Origin: a virus
Lineage: Duplodnaviria; Heunggongvirae; Uroviricota; Caudoviricetes
Strand: one strand, 5' to 3'
DNA: 64,000 nucleotides
IMG/VR virus record: IMGVR_UViG_3300045988_009865
Span: 24,263-88,262 of that record
The notes beneath the pieces are model-generated. The model saw only the letters and a list, made by a program, of their open reading frames with translations. It did no database searches and was not told where the DNA came from. Of the stretch, positions 22,355-50,017 are shown one piece after another. A program made the translations under genes and the position numbers. The stretch's first letter is position 1. The number at the start of each line of letters is the position of its first letter.

Positions 22355-24332
22355 AGGTCGTAAATTGAAAGAGGCTGGTCAGTTTGTTGGTCATTGCGCA
22401 TGTCCACGTTGTGGTTCATCAGATGCTGGTTCAATCTATCATCATGACGATGATTCTTATTCAATGACTTGCTTTAGTTGTAACAAAGGTTTCCCAGAGT
22501 GGGATTTTGATAAAGGACAAATCGTGAGCACTTATTCTACTGGTTCAGACAATAAAAACCGTACTTTCCGTGGAATGGATTTAGACGATGTGAAAGAAAA
22601 CCTTGAAGCAATGGACTTGAAAGACAGGAAGATTCCTGCAAAAGTTCTTGAGCGTTTGGGTATTAAGGTTGACATTGACAGTGATGGTGAAATTGATGCG
22701 CATTTCTATCCAACTTACAAACGTAATGAAGATGGTAAGCTAGAGCACGTTGGCTACCGTGTTCGTCACCGTTACCCAGAAGACCATCCAAAAGAACACC
22801 TACGAGGTAAGCTAAAAGACTTCTCAGGCGGTGTTGGAGACATTAAAGGTGAACTGGCGATGTTCGGTTCATGGATTGCTCCAGAAGGTGGTAACCGTCT
22901 ATTCATCTGGGAAGGTGAGATGGAATGTGCGACAGCAATCTACATGACTTCTTTGGCGATTAAAGATAAATCTCGTCGTAAGAATTACTGTCACGTATCT
23001 GTTCCATCAGGCGCAAACATTAAATCTATCAAAGACAACTATCAGTACATCACATCATTTGATGAGATTTACTTGTGCTTTGATAACGATGAAGCTGGTG
23101 CTAAAGCTACCAAAGAGGCTGCTGGTATCCTACCTATTGAGAAGGTTCGTTTATTCCAGTATCCAGAAGGTGTAAAAGACCTTAATGAATGGTGGACAAA
23201 GTTCTATAAAGAGAAAGACACAGTTCTGGAAGGATTTAAGCAGCGTATCTACAATGCACCTCGTTACTGCCCTGCTGGTATCAAGAACTTTGCAGACGGT
23301 TTTGAGGCAATGAAGAATCGTGGTCAGATTCCATTGATTCCTTTCCCAGAGTCTTTCGGGGATTTGAACAGGCTGACTTATGGTGGTTATGGTTTAGGTG
23401 AGATTACAACTATTGCAGCACCATCTTCAGTAGGTAAGTCAGCTTACACTCGTGAGATGATTTATTCAGCTTGGAAAGAAACTGATTACAATATCGGTGT
23501 AATTCCTGTAGAAGATACCTATGAAGAGTTGATGGAGATGCTCTGTGCAATTCACCTAAGCAAGCAGATTTCTGAGATTCCTTATGATGAACGGGATTGG
23601 GATGAACTAAAAGGAGCACACGCAGAACTATCTAAAGGTCGTCGTATCCATATCGTTGACCATCAAGGGGCAATTGACCAAGATAACCTGCTAGAGTTTG
23701 TTGACTATCTTGTTAATAGTTTAGACTGTAAGATTATCATCCTTGACCCTATTACGTTGGCTCTGTCACGTTCAGATACGGATGAAGAGGAAGTTTTGTC
23801 TGAGCTATTGCGTCGTTGCAAACGCTACCAGTATGCGCAGGTAAACGTGTGTCACGTTCGTAAGAGTGCAGGTGGTCAGAAAGCCAACTCTGAAGGTGGA
23901 GATATCTCTGAAGAGGATATTAAGGGTTCTGGTGCATACTTCCAGATTTCCATGAATAATATTTTGTTAATGCGTAACAAGGTTGACCCAGACCCTGTTA
24001 AGAAAAACTTGACAAAAATCAAGTTAACTAAATGTCGTCGTCATGGTAAGTCAACAGGTATTGCTGGTCATACTTGGTACAATCCAGATACAGGACGTCT
24101 TATCAAAGCTTCTGGATGTGGTGTTGATATTGATGGTGCAGCAGAAAATATTCGTCAACAGTTTGGTATTGGTGAAGCTGAAGACCATTACGATGACTCT
24201 TTACCTCATTATGAGGATGAAGTGTTTGACCGTGAGACTGGTGAAGTCTATACTGAAGAACAACGTCAAAGCTCAACAATTCCACCTGTATTAAGTGAGG
24301 ATGCAGATGACTGCCCGTTTGAAACTGAGTGA
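22341..24332 (+). CDS. DNA primase-helicase (zinc finger, TOPRIM, DnaB-like helicase)
   Basis: 663 aa; CPRCGSSD...CFSCNKG zinc ribbon; E...DNDEAG TOPRIM; Walker A AAPSSVGKS. Confidence 0.85.
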   Translation: MLMSKGRKLKEAGQFVGHCACPRCGSSDAGSIYHHDDDSYSMTCFSCNKGFPEWDFDKGQIVSTYSTGSDNKNRTFRGMDLDDVKENLEAMDLKDRKIPAKVLERLGIKVDIDSDGEIDAHFYPTYKRNEDGKLEHVGYRVRHRYPEDHPKEHLRGKLKDFSGGVGDIKGELAMFGSWIAPEGGNRLFIWEGEMECATAIYMTSLAIKDKSRRKNYCHVSVPSGANIKSIKDNYQYITSFDEIYLCFDNDEAGAKATKEAAGILPIEKVRLFQYPEGVKDLNEWWTKFYKEKDTVLEGFKQRIYNAPRYCPAGIKNFADGFEAMKNRGQIPLIPFPESFGDLNRLTYGGYGLGEITTIAAPSSVGKSAYTREMIYSAWKETDYNIGVIPVEDTYEELMEMLCAIHLSKQISEIPYDERDWDELKGAHAELSKGRRIHIVDHQGAIDQDNLLEFVDYLVNSLDCKIIILDPITLALSRSDTDEEEVLSELLRRCKRYQYAQVNVCHVRKSAGGQKANSEGGDISEEDIKGSGAYFQISMNNILLMRNKVDPDPVKKNLTKIKLTKCRRHGKSTGIAGHTWYNPDTGRLIKASGCGVDIDGAAENIRQQFGIGEAEDHYDDSLPHYEDEVFDRETGEVYTEEQRQSSTIPPVLSEDADDCPFETE

Positions 24333-33534: not shown

Positions 33535-35679
33535 ATGAACAAAGTACAGATTATTAAAAAGAACGGCTCACTTGAAGAACCTGATATCAAAAAAGTTTTA
33601 GCAGCAGTAACTAAGTCAGCTAACAGGGTTGGGTATAAAGAACTCCCACCAGATGTTACCCAAGCTCTTGAGTCAGCATTTATGAGGATTCTGGTAAAGT
33701 CCACTAAGCAGAATAATTTACTCATCTCGGTAAATGATATTCACAGCATCGTTGAAGGTGCTTTGGCAGAAGTCAATCACGAGATTTATGAGTCTTACTC
33801 AACATACAGAAATTACCGTAAAGAGGTTGCTCAAAATTGGGATGAGCTTTACCAAAAGACTAAAGACACACTCTTCTTAGGTGACCGTGAAAACGCTAAC
33901 TTTGACAGTAGTTTAATTTCTACAAAAGGCTCAATTATTCGTGGTTACCTGACTAAAGAAATCTTTAAACAGTACCATTTAACACCAGAGGAACTTGAAG
34001 CCATTGAAAAAGGGTTTATCTATATCCATGACTTAAGAGACCTAATTTTTGGTGGTATCAACTGTTGCCTGTTTGACATTGGTAAAGTACTGAAAGGTGG
34101 CTTTGAAATGTCTGGCATCGAATACTGTGAACCGAAATCTGTACTGTCAGCCTTACAGGTTATCGGTGATGTAGTTCTTTCAGCAACTGCACAGCAATTT
34201 GGTGGTTTTACTTTAGCAGAGATTGATAAGGTGCTTGTACCGTATGCTAAGAAGTCTCTACGATATCATGCTGAGAAAGCAGCATCTTACGGTATTCCTA
34301 AAGAACATTACCACAATTATGTCATGGAGCAGCTACAGCTTGAATTAACTCAGGGTTTCCAGTCACTCGAAATGAAACTAAATACTGTACCTTGTAGCCG
34401 TGGTGATTTCGCATTTACAACTTTGACATTCGGATTACTTGACTCAGATATGTCTAATGAAGACAACCGACTGCAATATATGATTGCAAACACCATTCTT
34501 GATGTTCGCATGAATGGACAAGGTAAGAGTAAGAAGCCTGTTGTATTCCCTAAACTGGTTTATATTCATGACCAGAAGAGACACGATGAGAATATCTGTC
34601 AAGGCCAACTGTACAGCAAAGCTATTGAGTGTTGCTCTAAAGCTATGTATCCAGATTTCTTAAGTGTATCTGGTCATGGTGCTGTAGCAGAGGCTTTTGA
34701 GCGTTCTGGCAAGGTAATTTCACCGATGGGTTGCAGAGCTTTCTTGTCTCCATATCTTAATGAGGATGGGGAAGAGTTCTACGTTGGTCGTGCTAACATT
34801 GGTGCTGTATCTTTGAACTTACCAATGATTTACCAGTATTCTAAAGAGAATGGTTTAGATTTCTGGAAAGAGCTTGATAAGTACCTAGAAATGATTCGCA
34901 GCTTCCATAAGAAACGTTATGAAATGATTGCCAATATGCCAGCAAGTTCTAACCCTCTTGCATTCACACAAGGCGGTCTGTATAAAGGGACTAAGAAGCC
35001 TACTGACAAGGTTGGTTGGGATATTGTGAAGTCCTTCACAGCTTCTTTTGGGGTTACTGCTCTTGATGAGTTATCTGTTCTTGCTGAAGGTAAACGACTT
35101 CATGAAGTTGGAAGTTCTAGTTTTGCATACGATGTTCTAGCATACATTAACATGAAAACTGAAGAGTTTAAGAATGAAGATGGCTTCCTGTATGCAGTAT
35201 ATGGCACTCCAGCAGAGTCATTGTGTGGAACTCAGCTAAAACAGTTCAGAGATATGTTTGGTGTTATTAAAGGCGTTTCTGACAAGGAATACTTTACAAA
35301 CAGTTTCCATATGAATGTTGCAGCAAACATCTCACCATTTGAGAAGCAGGACTTAGAAGAGCCATTCTTCCATATCTGTAGAGGTGGCAGAATCCAGTAT
35401 GTAAGGGTAGCTAACCCAGAAAACTTACCAGCACTTAAAAGTTGTATTACCAGAGGTATGTTGAAAGGTTTTTATCAGGGACTTAACTTTGACTTAGCAA
35501 TCTGCGAACATTGTGGCAACAGACCAAAGGCTGATGTTGAAGAATGTGAGGTTTGCCATTCACATGACATCTCTGTGATTAACAGAGTGTGTGGGTATCT
35601 TGGGTGGACTAAGATTAAAGGTGAATCCCGAATGAATGATGCAAAAATTGCTGAGATTCGTGACAGGGTTTCTATGTAA
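33535..35679 (+). CDS. nrdD: anaerobic ribonucleoside-triphosphate reductase
   Basis: 714 aa; C-terminal CEHCGN...CEVC zinc ribbon and glycyl-radical motif RVCGYLG. Confidence 0.9.
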   Translation: MNKVQIIKKNGSLEEPDIKKVLAAVTKSANRVGYKELPPDVTQALESAFMRILVKSTKQNNLLISVNDIHSIVEGALAEVNHEIYESYSTYRNYRKEVAQNWDELYQKTKDTLFLGDRENANFDSSLISTKGSIIRGYLTKEIFKQYHLTPEELEAIEKGFIYIHDLRDLIFGGINCCLFDIGKVLKGGFEMSGIEYCEPKSVLSALQVIGDVVLSATAQQFGGFTLAEIDKVLVPYAKKSLRYHAEKAASYGIPKEHYHNYVMEQLQLELTQGFQSLEMKLNTVPCSRGDFAFTTLTFGLLDSDMSNEDNRLQYMIANTILDVRMNGQGKSKKPVVFPKLVYIHDQKRHDENICQGQLYSKAIECCSKAMYPDFLSVSGHGAVAEAFERSGKVISPMGCRAFLSPYLNEDGEEFYVGRANIGAVSLNLPMIYQYSKENGLDFWKELDKYLEMIRSFHKKRYEMIANMPASSNPLAFTQGGLYKGTKKPTDKVGWDIVKSFTASFGVTALDELSVLAEGKRLHEVGSSSFAYDVLAYINMKTEEFKNEDGFLYAVYGTPAESLCGTQLKQFRDMFGVIKGVSDKEYFTNSFHMNVAANISPFEKQDLEEPFFHICRGGRIQYVRVANPENLPALKSCITRGMLKGFYQGLNFDLAICEHCGNRPKADVEECEVCHSHDISVINRVCGYLGWTKIKGESRMNDAKIAEIRDRVSM

Positions 35680-36426: not shown

Positions 36427-36461
36427 GTAAAACAATTAAATAATATTGGTGAGGTAACTAG

Positions 36462-36947: not shown

Positions 36948-36984
36948 ATCTCGTCGTAAAATTGGCTACGGGAAAGGTGAGATA

Positions 36985-37287
36985 ATGATTATCTCTTTTA
37001 ATAGTGCTTTATTAGGCACTTATAAGGTTAAGACCGAACTCCTTGATGAGTGGAAAAAGTATACAAACTCACTTTTCGGTAATGTTGGGATGGAAGCCTT
37101 AGCAGAGATTGAGAAGGCTGGAACATTCGAAGTTGTTGGTAAAGGCCACTTTACAATGTTCTACAAAACAAATTTAAACGTTGGTGACAGTGTTGTTGGT
37201 GTCACTGAAGAAGAACTCAAAACATTTTGTGAAAAGATTGAGAGAGATACTAAATGGGAATCTGGAATAGTTTTAAATCAAAAGTAA
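36985..37287 (+). CDS. hypothetical protein
   Basis: Start chosen at ATG 36985 (RBS aaggtga); ORF-track start 36829 would overlap nrdG. Confidence 0.35.
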   Translation: MIISFNSALLGTYKVKTELLDEWKKYTNSLFGNVGMEALAEIEKAGTFEVVGKGHFTMFYKTNLNVGDSVVGVTEEELKTFCEKIERDTKWESGIVLNQK

Positions 37288-37511
37288 AAGCAGCACTGGC
37301 ATCACTAGGTATGCTTACTGGTGTTGACGTGACTCATCTCATGCAGAACTTCAAGATGGATGAGAAACTAGCTAATGAGATTATGAAAAGCATCTATGTA
37401 GGTCGTGGCAAAGGTGGTAAAAAACAAGCACATCGACCAACTGGTGCAGCAGCAATTAAACGTGCAGCTAAGAAAGCTCGTAACCGTAAACGTAACAAGA
37501 AGGCTAAATAA
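37254..37511 (+). CDS. small protein with highly basic C-terminal tail
   Basis: 85 aa; C-terminus KGGKKQAHRPTGAAAIKRAAKKARNRKRNKKAK. Confidence 0.35.
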   Translation: MGIWNSFKSKVKAALASLGMLTGVDVTHLMQNFKMDEKLANEIMKSIYVGRGKGGKKQAHRPTGAAAIKRAAKKARNRKRNKKAK

Positions 37512-37834: not shown

Positions 37835-37847
37835 ACAGATACTATAA

Positions 37848-37875
37848 GGGGACTGTAAAGGTTCCCTTTTTATTT
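37848..37875 (+). terminator. intrinsic terminator
   Basis: ggggac-loop-gttccc hairpin then ttttt atttt. Confidence 0.5.
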
Positions 37876-37885
37876 TGGAGATAAT

Positions 37886-38401
37886 ATGTATCTGTCAAAT
37901 CTGAAACGTTCTGCTGCAATGTCTGTCCTAAGACTGAGCTTTGATGAACGTCAAGAGTTCATTGACTCCCACCAATACGACCCTTCTAACTCTAATCACA
38001 TGATTCTCTGGAATCGTGACAGTACTCGTGAAAGAGCACTATTCCGCTATTACCCATATTACACCATAGATAATCTGTATGAATGTTTTGTTGTGAAGAA
38101 CACCATTGTAGTGCTCAATAAGCTTTGTAGATACACAGGTAACCAGTCCTTCACATTAGGTCACCACAAGCCTGTTACAAAAGGTGGTGAACATCACTGT
38201 GCAAACTGGTTTATCCAGACTAAAGCTGATAATCAGAAGCAAGGAGATAACCTTCTAAGTACTCCTAAGATGACCTATGAAGAGCAAGAGAAATATATCA
38301 AAAATAATATGCCAGATGTGCTTGACAACAACTATACAGATTTGGCAATATCTCTCCTGTTGAAGTTTGAGACAGTTTATAGGGCAACTTACAATGGCTA
38401 A
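37886..38401 (+). CDS. HNH endonuclease-like protein
   Basis: 171 aa; LGHHKPVTKGGEHHCANW...N..KQGDN HNH-type motif. Confidence 0.45.
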   Translation: MYLSNLKRSAAMSVLRLSFDERQEFIDSHQYDPSNSNHMILWNRDSTRERALFRYYPYYTIDNLYECFVVKNTIVVLNKLCRYTGNQSFTLGHHKPVTKGGEHHCANWFIQTKADNQKQGDNLLSTPKMTYEEQEKYIKNNMPDVLDNNYTDLAISLLLKFETVYRATYNG

Positions 38402-38672
38402 AGCAGATTGGGAAATAAAAGACCTAATAAGTGATGCTGGAAATGGTTGTGAGATGTATATGATTCGTGGTCATGTACCAGACCCATTAGCTCTTGAGAT
38501 GATTGACCATCACACAAATGGATTCTACAAAGAACTAGGTGAACCAAATGTTGAACGCACTTGGACAAAACCAGTACCAGATAGCACAGGCAACTGTTCA
38601 GTCCTCTATCACATTGTGAATCCACAAAAATGCAAAACAGCTATGGCTGTGACATTCGTAACTTTTGATTGA
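38394..38672 (+). CDS. hypothetical protein
   Basis: Start refined to ATG 38394; 92 aa. Confidence 0.35.
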   Translation: MAKADWEIKDLISDAGNGCEMYMIRGHVPDPLALEMIDHHTNGFYKELGEPNVERTWTKPVPDSTGNCSVLYHIVNPQKCKTAMAVTFVTFD

Positions 38673-38684
38673 GAGAGAAAAACT

Positions 38685-39566
38685 ATGAAAACATCTATCC
38701 GTGTTATAATTCATTCACCGACAAAAGGGTCTCATGAAGAAGAGTTTAACATCATCCAGTTCCCTTCTGGTGAGATTGGTGGACACTTTTCACAAGAGCT
38801 TGTTGACTTTACTGCTCACGCAGCATCATCCATCAACAATGTGATTATGATTGTAAAAGGCTATGATAAAGACACATTGTTTGCTGTGGCACTTGCTAAA
38901 GAAGCAATTGATGATTTAGTTCCTCATGAATATGCCTTAAAGACTGTCATCTTTTACTACTTACCAAATGCACGATATGACCGTCACATGTTTAAAGGTG
39001 ATGCAGCAGCTTTGAAGGTTTTTGCTAAACAGGTTAATGCAATGGGGTTTGGTGCGGTCTGTGCAGTTGACCCTCACAGTTATGTGCCAGATAACCTGTT
39101 TAACTGCTTCCAAAGTATTCCTCAAAATGAAATTGCAGTCCACTATGCAAATGACCCACTGGTTGATTACTTAGTAGCCCCAGATGCAGGTGCTTCTAAG
39201 AAGATTGCAGAGTCTGCTAAAGAGGTGGATAAACCATATATCACAATGTCTAAAGTACGTAACCTTAAGACTGGTGAAATTACTGGTATGCGAATCCTTG
39301 ATGATGTTGATTTGACAGATAAAACTGTTATGATTCTGGATGATATCTGTGATGGTGGTCGAACCTTCATAGAAGCAGCTAAACATCTTCGTGAAGCAGG
39401 TGCAAAACGTGTAGAACTCTATGTAACACATGGTATCTTTTCTAAAGGTGTTGAAAACCTTCTTGACAATGGTATTGACCACATCTACACTACAAACTCT
39501 TTAGGAGAAGCTAAAGACCGTGGCTTAACACATTATGGTCAAGTTACTGTAGCAAACCTTGATTAA
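38685..39566 (+). CDS. ribose-phosphate pyrophosphokinase-like protein (PRPP synthetase family; candidate ADPR-PP synthetase)
   Basis: 293 aa; phosphoribosyl-binding loop MILDDICDGGRTF; adjacent to NAMPT-like gene. Confidence 0.75.
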   Translation: MKTSIRVIIHSPTKGSHEEEFNIIQFPSGEIGGHFSQELVDFTAHAASSINNVIMIVKGYDKDTLFAVALAKEAIDDLVPHEYALKTVIFYYLPNARYDRHMFKGDAAALKVFAKQVNAMGFGAVCAVDPHSYVPDNLFNCFQSIPQNEIAVHYANDPLVDYLVAPDAGASKKIAESAKEVDKPYITMSKVRNLKTGEITGMRILDDVDLTDKTVMILDDICDGGRTFIEAAKHLREAGAKRVELYVTHGIFSKGVENLLDNGIDHIYTTNSLGEAKDRGLTHYGQVTVANLD

Positions 39567-39575
39567 AACTTTATA

Positions 39576-39596
39576 GGGGCTTAAAAGCCCCATTTT
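39576..39596 (+). terminator. intrinsic terminator
   Basis: ggggctt-aa-aagcccc hairpin then atttt. Confidence 0.55.
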
Positions 39597-39611
39597 GAGA
39601 GAGATTAAAAG

Positions 39612-41393
39612 ATGACTAAATCACTTTATGCAGTCCCAGCAGGTTTAAAAGCAGATGCTTACAAATCTGGTCACATTTACCAGTACCCTAGTGCAACAGA
39701 ATACTTGATGTTCAACCTGACACCACGTAGTGATAAGTGGTTTAACAGCCCTTTAGCCATTGACGGTGTAGTGGCTTTTGGTATCCAACGTTTTGTTAAA
39801 GATTATTTAATAGACCACTGGAATGCCACCTTCTTTGAACGTGACAAAAAAGAAGCAATTGACGAAATCTTAGAAGTCATGAACGGTGTTCTGGGTAAAG
39901 ATGCTATTGGTCGAGAACATTGGGAAGCACTCCACGACTTAGGTTATCTACCGGTTGAAGTATACGCTGTAGAAGAAGGCACAGTTGTCCCTATGCGTGT
40001 ACCAATGATTGTCTTCCAGAACACTGTCTCAGGTTTCCATTGGGTAGCGGGGTATCTGGAAGATGCTTTCTCTGCTGAGATTTGGAAGGCTTGTACCATT
40101 GCAACTATTGCATTGCACTACAAACGTATTTGTAAGAAGTGGTCTGACCTTACTTGTGACAATGACTTACATTTGCCTTATCAGTGCCATGACTTTGCTA
40201 TGCGTGGTATGTCTGGCTTTACTGATGACGCATTTAATGCTGTAGGTCACTTAACCAGCTTTAAAGGGACTGATAGCTTCCCTGCTGTATACACGGCTAA
40301 ACGAATCTATGGACAGTCCTACCCAATCTCTGATATTGGTAGTTCTGTACCAGCCACTGAACACTCTGTAATGTGTGCAAACATTGCTTGGGAAGGTGGC
40401 AATGAGTTGATTGAAGAAGAAAGACGTTTTAAAGGTGAGTTACAAACCTTCCGTCGTTTCTTAACAGAAACTTACCCAACTGGTATTGCAAGTGTTGTTT
40501 CAGATACTTATAACTTCTGGAGAACTGTATCAGTTATATTACCAGAACTCCGTAAAGAGATTATGGAACGTGATGGCAAACTGGTAATTCGTCCTGACTC
40601 TGGAGACCCTGTACATATTGTCACAGGTTATAAAGCAATCCACTTAGAGTGTGCTAAAAAGGCTTATTACGAACACCTAAGCAAGCTGGAAGCCAGCGAC
40701 ACAATGTTGAATGCTGTTCTGAACATGAAGCTTGAAAACATCAACTATGGTATTGCTGGATGGCTACTGTCAGAAGGATACGAGATGGTTGTTGACAGAG
40801 AAGACTTTGAAGTTGCTGATACAGTGATGTTGAAAAACGCTTATATGGTTGGTTCTGCAAACGTTGTAACACGTCCTGTAGCAGAGATTGATGGGGCTAT
40901 TAAGACCTTGTATAACATCTTTGGAGGGACTATCAACTCTAAAGGTTTTAAGGTACTGGATGAACACATTGGCCTTATTTATGGTGACTCTATCACGTTG
41001 GAACGTGCAAACGAAATCCTGAAGCGTTTGTATGAAATGGGTTTTGCAAGCTCTAACGTAGTGTTTGGTGTGGGTTCTTACACTTACCAGTACATGACTC
41101 GTGATACCTTTGCATTTGCTGTCAAAGCAACTCTTGCAAGCATTGGTGGTAAAGAGATTATGCTTGCAAAAGACCCTAAAACAGATAGTGGTGTTAAGAA
41201 GTCTGCTTTTGGTGGTGTAGCACCTATGTGGGATGGTGATAATCTGAAAGCTGTAGATGGCTATGGATTCCAGAGCTTTGCAGATGTGCTAGAGCATCCA
41301 GCTTGCGCTTTACGTTTAGTCTTTAGCGACTCTGAGCAGTTCGGTTACACAACTCTTGGTGATATTCGAAATAATATTGACAAGCAGCTTTAA
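39612..41393 (+). CDS. nicotinamide phosphoribosyltransferase-family protein (NAMPT/NadV-like; candidate Namat)
   Basis: 593 aa; N-terminal DAYKSGHIYQYP matches the NAMPT DSYK..H..QYP signature. Confidence 0.75.
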   Translation: MTKSLYAVPAGLKADAYKSGHIYQYPSATEYLMFNLTPRSDKWFNSPLAIDGVVAFGIQRFVKDYLIDHWNATFFERDKKEAIDEILEVMNGVLGKDAIGREHWEALHDLGYLPVEVYAVEEGTVVPMRVPMIVFQNTVSGFHWVAGYLEDAFSAEIWKACTIATIALHYKRICKKWSDLTCDNDLHLPYQCHDFAMRGMSGFTDDAFNAVGHLTSFKGTDSFPAVYTAKRIYGQSYPISDIGSSVPATEHSVMCANIAWEGGNELIEEERRFKGELQTFRRFLTETYPTGIASVVSDTYNFWRTVSVILPELRKEIMERDGKLVIRPDSGDPVHIVTGYKAIHLECAKKAYYEHLSKLEASDTMLNAVLNMKLENINYGIAGWLLSEGYEMVVDREDFEVADTVMLKNAYMVGSANVVTRPVAEIDGAIKTLYNIFGGTINSKGFKVLDEHIGLIYGDSITLERANEILKRLYEMGFASSNVVFGVGSYTYQYMTRDTFAFAVKATLASIGGKEIMLAKDPKTDSGVKKSAFGGVAPMWDGDNLKAVDGYGFQSFADVLEHPACALRLVFSDSEQFGYTTLGDIRNNIDKQL

Positions 41394-41408
41394 AAGTATA
41401 TGATAAGA

Positions 41409-41429
41409 GGCTCCTACGGGAGCCTTTTT
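41409..41429 (+). terminator. intrinsic terminator
   Basis: ggctcc-tacg-ggagcc hairpin then ttttt. Confidence 0.7.
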
Positions 41430-49231: not shown

Positions 49232-50017
49232 ATGGGTATTGTAAAAATCATCAATGGGGATATCTTCTCCGCATTTGATAAAGGTAAGTTTGATATTATT
49301 GGTCACGGTTGCAACTGTATGAATTTAATGGGTGCAGGTATCGCTGACAAGATTTCTAAACTTTACCCAAAAGCATATGAGACTGATACAGAAGTCTATC
49401 TGTATGCAGGTGGTATAGGTCACAAACCCTGTGAAAATTTACTAGGCAATTTCTCTGTAGCACGTTTAGAACAAGGCCGTATAGCTAACCTTTACACTCA
49501 GCTTAAGACTGGTAAAGATGCCCGATACAGTGCTTTAGAGTCATCTTTGAAACAACTTAACAGATACTGTGAAGTCAATCAGTTGAAGAAAGTTGGGTTA
49601 CCTATGATTGGTGCAGGTATCGGTGGACTAGACTCTCAAGCCGTCACAGTCATCATTAATCAGGTGATGAAGAGTGTAGATGTGTATCTGTATGTCTATG
49701 AAGGAGAGATGTACCACAAGTTACGCTCAGGTTGGAAGAACTACTGTGAACCAGAATACTTTGCAGGTGTAGTAGTGTTCACTGATGATACAGTTACCCT
49801 CTTCAGACGAAGAAAAGGCAAGATACATCAAAGTAACCCTCCGGTTGAAAAGATGTCTCTAAGTAACGCTCTAGTTACCCACCTGTCGAAGAGCAATCAC
49901 AGGATTGCAGTAACATTTGGCAGTGATGCAGATACATATATCTATGCAAGAACTGATGAGGATGTTGAGGAAATTTTCTCTTCACCGGAAGTTACCTTCT
50001 TAGACGCAAAGAACTAA
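49232..50017 (+). CDS. macro-domain (ADP-ribose binding/processing) protein
   Basis: 261 aa; N-terminal IINGDIFSA...DIIGHGCNCMNLMGAGIA resembles the macrodomain GDI...N.AN...G.G.A signature. Confidence 0.5.
   Translation: MGIVKIINGDIFSAFDKGKFDIIGHGCNCMNLMGAGIADKISKLYPKAYETDTEVYLYAGGIGHKPCENLLGNFSVARLEQGRIANLYTQLKTGKDARYSALESSLKQLNRYCEVNQLKKVGLPMIGAGIGGLDSQAVTVIINQVMKSVDVYLYVYEGEMYHKLRSGWKNYCEPEYFAGVVVFTDDTVTLFRRRKGKIHQSNPPVEKMSLSNALVTHLSKSNHRIAVTFGSDADTYIYARTDEDVEEIFSSPEVTFLDAKN

Follow-up and report, generated by a model that had tools for sequence, protein, structure and literature searches.

A pair of adjacent genes, adps and namat, was studied in a 64,000-nt stretch of DNA from a virus of the Caudoviricetes (IMG/VR record IMGVR_UViG_3300045988_009865, positions 24,263 to 88,262), which is called the window in what follows. 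Both genes are on the + strand (Table 1). The first encodes a Prs-like protein of 293 amino acids (aa) and the second, which starts 45 nt past the adps stop codon, a NAMPT-like protein of 593 aa. A model that had read the DNA earlier had taken the pair for a candidate module of the type of NARP1 (NAD+ reconstitution pathway 1), which counters antiviral defence. The two open reading frames (ORFs) of this original prediction, as well as the peptides it had quoted from them, VMILDDICDGGRTFIEAAK and ADAYKSGHIYQYPSATEY, were found. It had also referred to a report from 2024 that such pairs rebuild NAD+ from ADP-ribose (ADPR) and nicotinamide, and this statement is correct (bioRxiv 10.1101/2024.02.11.579819).

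The GC content of the window is about 38-40%. Its adps-namat locus is matched by 257 phage records at identities of up to 96.8%, nearly all of them from Felixounavirus-like phages of Escherichia, Salmonella, Shigella and Citrobacter, and the source of the window is a Felixounavirus-type phage. Among the matches listed, the annotated records name the pair 'ribose-phosphate pyrophosphokinase / nicotinamide (or nicotinate) phosphoribosyltransferase' or 'hypothetical protein'. The complete genome of the BASEL phage Bas63 (Escherichia phage JohannRWettstein, MZ501086, 87.1 kb) was used for comparison. By its collinear genes the window corresponds to about 14.5-77.6 kb of this genome, and about 23 kb of the window phage lies outside it. 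The Bas63 proteins bas63_0079 and bas63_0080 likewise have lengths of 293 and 593 aa and, as in the window, are encoded between NrdG upstream and rIIA/rIIB downstream. Namat of the window shares 581 of 593 residues (98%) with bas63_0080, including the insert and the clamp described below, and Adps is 77% identical to bas63_0079 over its full length (227 of 293 residues). Gene order is the same in both phages, which belong to the same genus-level lineage. The equal lengths, the common gene context and these identities imply that the pair in the window is the orthologue of the founding NARP1 operon.

NARP1 was discovered by the deletion of genes 79-80 of Bas63, which sensitized the phage about 20-fold to the SIR2-HerA defence (bioRxiv 10.1101/2024.02.11.579819). 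In the same study ADPR-pyrophosphate (ADPR-PP) was seen in infected cells only if the Bas63 operon and the SIR2-HerA defence were both present, the SpβL1 homologues converted ADPR and ATP to ADPR-PP and then ADPR-PP and nicotinamide to NAD+, and NARP1 was catalogued in 859 phage genomes. It is very probable that the locus in the window is a NARP1 counter-defence operon of a Felixounavirus-type phage. The basis for this is its orthology to the Bas63 genes, the conservation of catalytic and specificity residues, the fold of Namat and the absence from the window of a gene for nicotinamide mononucleotide (NMN) adenylyltransferase (NMNAT). Both reactions and the anti-defence phenotype of the window pair we infer from the published homologues. 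Defences that cleave NAD+ (SIR2-HerA, DSR1/2, type I Thoeris, SEFIR) leave ADPR and nicotinamide. Adps would then transfer the beta,gamma-pyrophosphate from ATP to the 1'' hydroxyl on ADPR's terminal ribose, yielding ADPR-PP, from which Namat would form NAD+ directly with nicotinamide, without NMN, NMNAT or the salvage enzymes of the host.

The assignment of the two proteins to the Prs and NAMPT families agrees with the Pfam matches, which were Pribosyltran (PF00156, E 6.4e-11) and Pribosyl_synth (PF14572, 2.7e-9) for the first and NAPRTase (PF04095, 1.7e-34) and NAMPT_N (PF18127, 2.5e-5) for the second. These are also the domains of ordinary Prs and Nampt, and the names in the database annotations point the same way. 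The genes could accordingly encode a PRPP (phosphoribosyl pyrophosphate) synthetase and a Nampt/NadV enzyme that together make NMN, to be finished by NadR- or PncC-dependent routes of the host, thereby boosting the supply of nucleotides and NAD. Canonical enzymes of this kind (E. coli Prs; H. ducreyi NadV, 9KE8; human NAMPT) indeed share their folds and phosphoribosyl-transfer chemistry with the window pair, but according to the literature their substrates are ribose-5-phosphate and PRPP, not ADPR and ADPR-PP. Against this explanation stands the phenotype of Bas63, which overcame SIR2-HerA also in a host that lacked pncC and nadR, as well as the dependence of ADPR-PP on the operon (bioRxiv 10.1101/2024.02.11.579819). 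The sequence of Namat, together with the gene neighbourhood of Adps, argues against it as well, as set out below, and such a classical salvage role is very improbable.

When PDB entries were ranked by sequence similarity to Namat of the window, SpβL1 Namat came first (E 5.5e-128, 431 bits) with 9W5W and 9W5X, its structures with NAD+ and with nicotinamide (PMC12774641). H. ducreyi NadV (3e-104, 353 bits), Xanthomonas Nampt (4e-50, 174 bits) and human NAMPT (about 1e-40, 145 bits) followed. The AlphaFold model of the window protein, for which 36 homologues were used, had a mean predicted local distance difference test (pLDDT) of 92.9, and its best fold match was 9W5X with a template modelling (TM) score of 0.95, normalized to the target. 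Thirteen of the 14 mapped ligand-contact residues of SpβL1 Namat are identical in the window (D15, Y17, F195, R198, D221, A248, H251, R327, D329, G458, G488, S489 and R497), the catalytic histidine included, and the sole change is S190 to A196. The residues of the SpβL1 AMP site (D459, T496, R497 and D498 in the window protein) are kept as well. The differences from SpβL1 Namat, which has 491 aa and about 38% identity to the window protein, consist in the absence from the former of an 85-aa subdomain and a 15-aa insertion and in the changes of R40 to K42/W43 in the clamp loop, F392 to Y490 and A362 to S460.

Namat is set apart from Nampt by an adenine selectivity clamp that has been defined structurally (PMC12774641). 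The selectivity-clamp helix (SCH) of SpβL1 Namat has its counterpart in the window (Table 1), whereas the same helix reads GAQTYQRNTRD in H. ducreyi NadV and GGALLQKVDRD in Xanthomonas Nampt, with no aromatic residue at position 3 or 7 of the clamp. The signature therefore discriminates Namat from true Nampts, and the presence of this ADPR-PP-selecting clamp in the window protein speaks against classical salvage. In the clamp loop, where K42 of the window aligns with R40 of SpβL1, the stretch TPRSDKWFN is identical in the window and in Bas63. With a lysine instead of an arginine at this position, as in Bas63, the residue that follows does the stacking (PMC12774641), and W43 is thus predicted to stack against the adenine. 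For SpβL1 Namat, a preference for ADPR-PP over PRPP and the direct formation of NAD+ have been shown (bioRxiv 10.1101/2024.02.11.579819; PMC12774641).

Chromosomal homologues of Namat of about 496 aa, 45-48% identical to the window protein, were observed in Klebsiella, Cronobacter, Erwinia and Phytobacter (proteins P0069, P0072, P0083 and others). They have the clamp signature GS[YF]TYQYNTRD, lack the insert and fit the reported bacterial homologues of NARP1.

Adps matches phrog_619 (6e-97). In an alignment that included the Bas63 protein it was 33% identical to Adps of ICP1 vs 24% to E. coli Prs. The comparison with canonical Prs/NAMPT and with Adps/Namat that had been proposed for both proteins thus places Namat, among the solved structures, nearest SpβL1 Namat in sequence and in fold, and Adps nearer ICP1 Adps than E. 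coli Prs. Genes of the Adps clade adjoin namat in 97% of cases and bacterial prs genes rarely do (bioRxiv 10.1101/2024.02.11.579819), a further point against an ordinary Prs. The Prs-like protein of the window, encoded directly beside namat, would by its sequence belong to the Adps clade. A sequence search of the PDB for a solved Adps structure returned canonical Prs enzymes only (best 4TWB, 8e-18), and the functional residues were therefore mapped through the sequence of ICP1 Adps, whose structures have been described with these residues named (PMC13586617, September 2026). The acceptor-site residues R97, H131 and D167 and the catalytic K190 of the beta-hairpin correspond to R87, H121, D161 and K185 of ICP1. 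In the PP-loop the residues D, D, I, C, D, G and F are identical, S220 of ICP1 is replaced by a threonine (T227), and A218/A219 by glycine and arginine. Like ICP1 Adps, the window protein is a Prs-like two-domain enzyme that lacks the C-terminal alpha11-alpha12 regulatory module of Prs; its end lies about 20 residues short of that of E. coli Prs, with a gap opposite KSLPNV. In ICP1, too, namat is the next large gene downstream. The NARP1-type Adps/Namat module of the original prediction is supported by the orthology to Bas63 genes 79-80, by the clamp signature of Namat and by the catalytic residues of Adps.

Table 1. Features of the adps-namat locus and of related genes in the window (positions in the window)
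Feature	Position	Strand	Basis
adps, ADP-ribose pyrophosphokinase, Prs-like, 293 aa (predicted: ADPR + ATP -> ADPR-PP + AMP)	38685-39566	+	Pfam; identity to Bas63 and ICP1; phrog_619
Adps PP-loop D219-D220-I221-C222-D223-G224-G225-R226-T227-F228, predicted ribose/pyrophosphate-donor site	39339-39368	+	Alignment to ICP1 D212-F221; roles from PMC13586617
namat, nicotinamide ADP-ribose transferase, NAMPT-like, 593 aa (predicted: ADPR-PP + nicotinamide -> NAD+ + pyrophosphate)	39612-41393	+	Bas63_0080, 98%; PDB and fold match
Namat clamp loop K42-W43, putative adenine-stacking position	39735-39740	+	K42 aligns with SpβL1 R40
Namat SCH signature, G488 to D498	41073-41105	+	GSYTYQYMTRD; Y490, Y494
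Namat insertion of 85 aa, residues 343-427, compact alpha/beta subdomain	40638-40892	+	Comparison with the 491-aa SpβL1 Namat; predicted fold
Intergenic hairpin GGGGCU-UAAA-AGCCCC, then AUUUUG	39576-39591	+	Free energy -11.5 kcal/mol, z -2.4
Intrinsic-terminator-like hairpin after namat	41405-41428	+	10-bp stem, 5 GC pairs, T-run
Terminator-like hairpin, possible upstream boundary of the unit	37846-37868	+	Terminator scan: 9-bp stem, then T-run
171-aa ORF, orthologue of bas63_0077; context, not an established part of NARP1	37886-38401	+	phrog_3500 (3e-92)
92-aa ORF, orthologue of bas63_0078; stops 12 nt ahead of adps	38394-38672	+	phrog_4726 (2.9e-57)
Macro-domain protein, 261 aa, orthologue of bas63_0095 'putative phosphatase'; candidate unlinked Adpp-like ADPR-1''-phosphate phosphatase	49232-50017	+	Macro, PF01661

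The other known routes to NAD+ were looked for in a Pfam scan of all non-overlapping window ORFs of at least 45 aa (E of at most 0.001); in one such scan the best 25 of 28 families were listed, with E-values of up to 7.4e-4, and the other three are apparently weak. No match to NMNAT (CTP_transf_like, PF01467), Nudix, NadR-type, PnuC or RyR (PF02026) families was found among these ORFs, which upholds the earlier statement that no NMNAT gene is present in the window. An NMNAT gene elsewhere in the genome had been named as a finding that would tell against NARP1, and none is annotated in the complete, collinear genome of Bas63. These results bear on the possibility that the NAMPT homologue is a Nampt that works together with an NMNAT/Nudix protein of the phage, as in NARP2 of Vibrio phage KVP40. 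The second protein is indeed a homologue of NAMPT, and the partner might be encoded in the part of the genome outside the window; a Nudix gene, like NMNAT, is not annotated in Bas63. However, the Nampts of NARP2 group in a clade of their own and 94% of their genomes have an Nmnat gene (bioRxiv 10.1101/2024.02.11.579819), and the window protein has the Namat signature and an Adps partner. The NARP2 type is even less probable than the classical salvage role. NARP3 of the Bas30 type consists of a PnuC-like transporter and a NadR-like enzyme (PMC13464706). Judged from the gene content, both NARP2 (KVP40 type) and NARP3 (Bas30 type) are excluded as far as the data reach. As no RyR match was found among the window ORFs, the locus also differs from the NARP1 that is associated with RyDEP.

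Some points weigh against the assignment to NARP1. The published in vitro biochemistry is that of the SpβL1, ICP1 and DyoEdafos homologues, neither of Bas63 nor of the window phage. SpβL1 Namat also forms NMN from PRPP in vitro, about half as actively as human Nampt does (PMC12774641), a result that favours classical salvage and because of which some residual Nampt activity of the window protein is conceivable. Furthermore, the adenine contacts F18 (from the neighbouring protomer) and F92 of ICP1 Adps align with S16 and M102 of the window, close to the canonical F-x-S-G-E motif (QFPSGEI). Since the N-terminal alignment with ICP1 is weak and unreliable in this region, recognition of ADPR by Adps cannot be confirmed from sequence. 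The N-terminal half of Adps (residues 1-180) is also just 66% identical to that of Bas63, vs 96% for residues 181-293, the C-terminal catalytic half. Finally, the 23 kb of the phage genome that lies outside the window has to be taken into account.

The low identity of this half of Adps coincides with a block at about 38400-39200, where the nucleotide identity to Bas63 is 59-80% vs about 93% in the flanking background, and which takes in the 92-aa ORF together with roughly the first 500 nt of adps. Judged by these identities, the upstream 92-aa ORF forms a mosaic allele together with the N-terminal domain of Adps. Among the phage records 159 carry the window type of Adps (at least 80% identity) and 94 the Bas63 type (60-80%), the window type being the commoner of the two.

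NARP1 is a known system that was first described in the Felixounavirus-type lineage to which the window phage belongs. It provides about 4% of the sequenced phages with an escape from NAD+-depleting immunity (SIR2-HerA, DSR, Thoeris, SEFIR). The locus is a further copy of the founding example and adds no new biology. Its practical use lies in annotation, where the clamp signature offers a simple means to re-label pairs that are annotated as Prs/NAMPT.

With respect to transcription, each of the two genes had been claimed to have a terminator of its own. This holds for namat, which is followed by a hairpin of -16.6 kcal/mol (z -4.05; none of 200 shuffled sequences was as stable) and then by UUUUUAAUUU; it looks like a real terminator that ends the adps-namat unit. 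It does not hold for the hairpin between the genes, which did not pass the terminator scan and has just four U residues after its stem. This hairpin, which is kept in Bas63 with one change in the loop, is more likely an attenuator or stabilizer than a full terminator, and such a role agrees with the pair having been described as an operon in the literature. Because of the terminator-like site further upstream, the transcription unit may comprise four genes, including the 171-aa and the 92-aa ORFs. Neither of these two ORFs had a Pfam match past the cut-off, and in the four ORFs that flank the pair there was no Pfam support for small NARP1 accessories (Macro/Adpp, RyDEP). The 171-aa ORF has a weak match to an HNH endonuclease family of PHROG (2.5e-4) and an H-H...N...N-like stretch, GHHKPVTKGGEHHCANW, and may encode a degenerate or atypical HNH protein. 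The 45-nt spacer between adps and namat (39567-39611) is an empty site in the window, whereas in VpaE1 (L010:1091-1582), as well as in other relatives among those listed, it is occupied by a gene of about 490 nt for a homing endonuclease, annotated as HNH.

The length of the NAMPT-like protein had been taken as a sign of an extra domain. Compared with SpβL1 Namat, it indeed contains an insertion of 85 aa at residues 343-427, right after the RPDSGDP strand, which makes up most of its additional length, and another of 15 aa at about residues 258-272. The pLDDT of the 85-aa insert was above 90 in the model of the full protein and 88.7, with a predicted TM score of 0.77, when it was folded alone. 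No known fold was matched in a fold comparison of the insert, and it is not discussed in the paper on the Namat structures (PMC12774641). It is specific to the Namats of about 590-610 aa from Ounavirinae-like phages, where it is present down to about 46% identity, and is missing from the 495-aa forms. In homologues of 515-587 aa this site has insertions that are shorter or look unrelated. An origin of the insert as a remnant of an intein or mobile element was considered and rejected: it is 85 aa long, lies in frame, is conserved within namat in 254 phage records and has a confidently predicted fold against the body of the enzyme.

Some NARP1 operons contain a gene for Adpp, a Macro-domain phosphatase that converts ADPR-1''-phosphate, the product of RES-domain defences, to ADPR, by which NARP1 overcomes aRES (preprint 10.64898/2026.01.28.702374). 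The survey for Adpp covered the genes within two of each NARP1 (10.64898/2026.01.28.702374), and a distal Adpp would therefore have been missed. No Macro match was found in the four ORFs that flank the pair in the window. However, a gene 7.8 kb downstream of namat, separated from it by rIIA/rIIB and other genes, encodes a protein that contains a Macro domain at residues 25-141 (PF01661, 2.1e-7). If this protein were Adpp-like, the NARP1 of the window phage could rebuild NAD+ also after aRES defences. The presence of the domain would agree with this, as would the family of the protein, phrog_335, to which the Macro protein of Vibrio phage K406, encoded there between adps and namat, also belongs (27% identity). 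The K406 layout is that of NARP1-AP (Adps-Adpp-Namat), described for Vibrio phage Gary, with which the window shares the Adps and Namat core. Unlike NARP1-AP, where the Macro gene is inside the operon, the window has it at a distance, and its product is extended by about 100 aa at the C-terminus. The likeness, moreover, is to the K406 protein. The characterized Adpp of phage Gary was not found among the 60 best listed matches that the Macro protein of K406 gave, so that the link to a characterized Adpp comes only through the Adps-Macro-Namat layout of K406. The Macro family is present in 2,855 phage records, T4-like phages included, and most of those among the matches listed show no NARP1 gene at the match. 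Being so widespread, it probably has a role that is independent of NARP1. In the PDB the similarity of the window protein to Poa1p is weak (E 0.01-0.02) and that to OARD1/TARG1 is better (2e-5). An Adpp-like function of this protein is thus unlikely. Equally doubtful is the proposal that NARP1 of Felixounavirus is extended in two ways, with the Macro protein as an unlinked Adpp and the 85-aa subdomain of Namat serving in regulation or in the binding of a partner. If it were true, the unlinked Adpp would let the phage rebuild NAD+ after RES-type defences that produce ADPR-1''-phosphate.

Elsewhere in the window a few further differences from Bas63 were observed. The gene nrdD for anaerobic ribonucleotide reductase (33535-35679) is a single unbroken ORF of 714 aa, and in Bas63 (L005:46630-49516) it is annotated as two joined pieces around the homing endonuclease gene bas63_0068. 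Near position 36430 Bas63 is about 270 nt longer and has bas63_0072 inserted after the 131-aa ORF and before nrdG. Another divergent block, with 49-63% identity to Bas63, extends from 36950 to 37400 over small ORFs after nrdG. Finally, the 1.5 kb at 56970-58500, between convergent gene blocks, contains no ORFs of at least 45 aa, and no tRNA or Rfam match was found in this ORF-free region (56.9-58.5 kb). Of the 32 exact matches in the window to the iteron-like motif CTTGTTA, 15 lie at 57216-58284, all on the + strand and often with a spacing of 11 or 12 nt, and inverted copies (TAACAA) are present at 57312-57343. The region may be a replication origin or an array of binding sites for a regulator.

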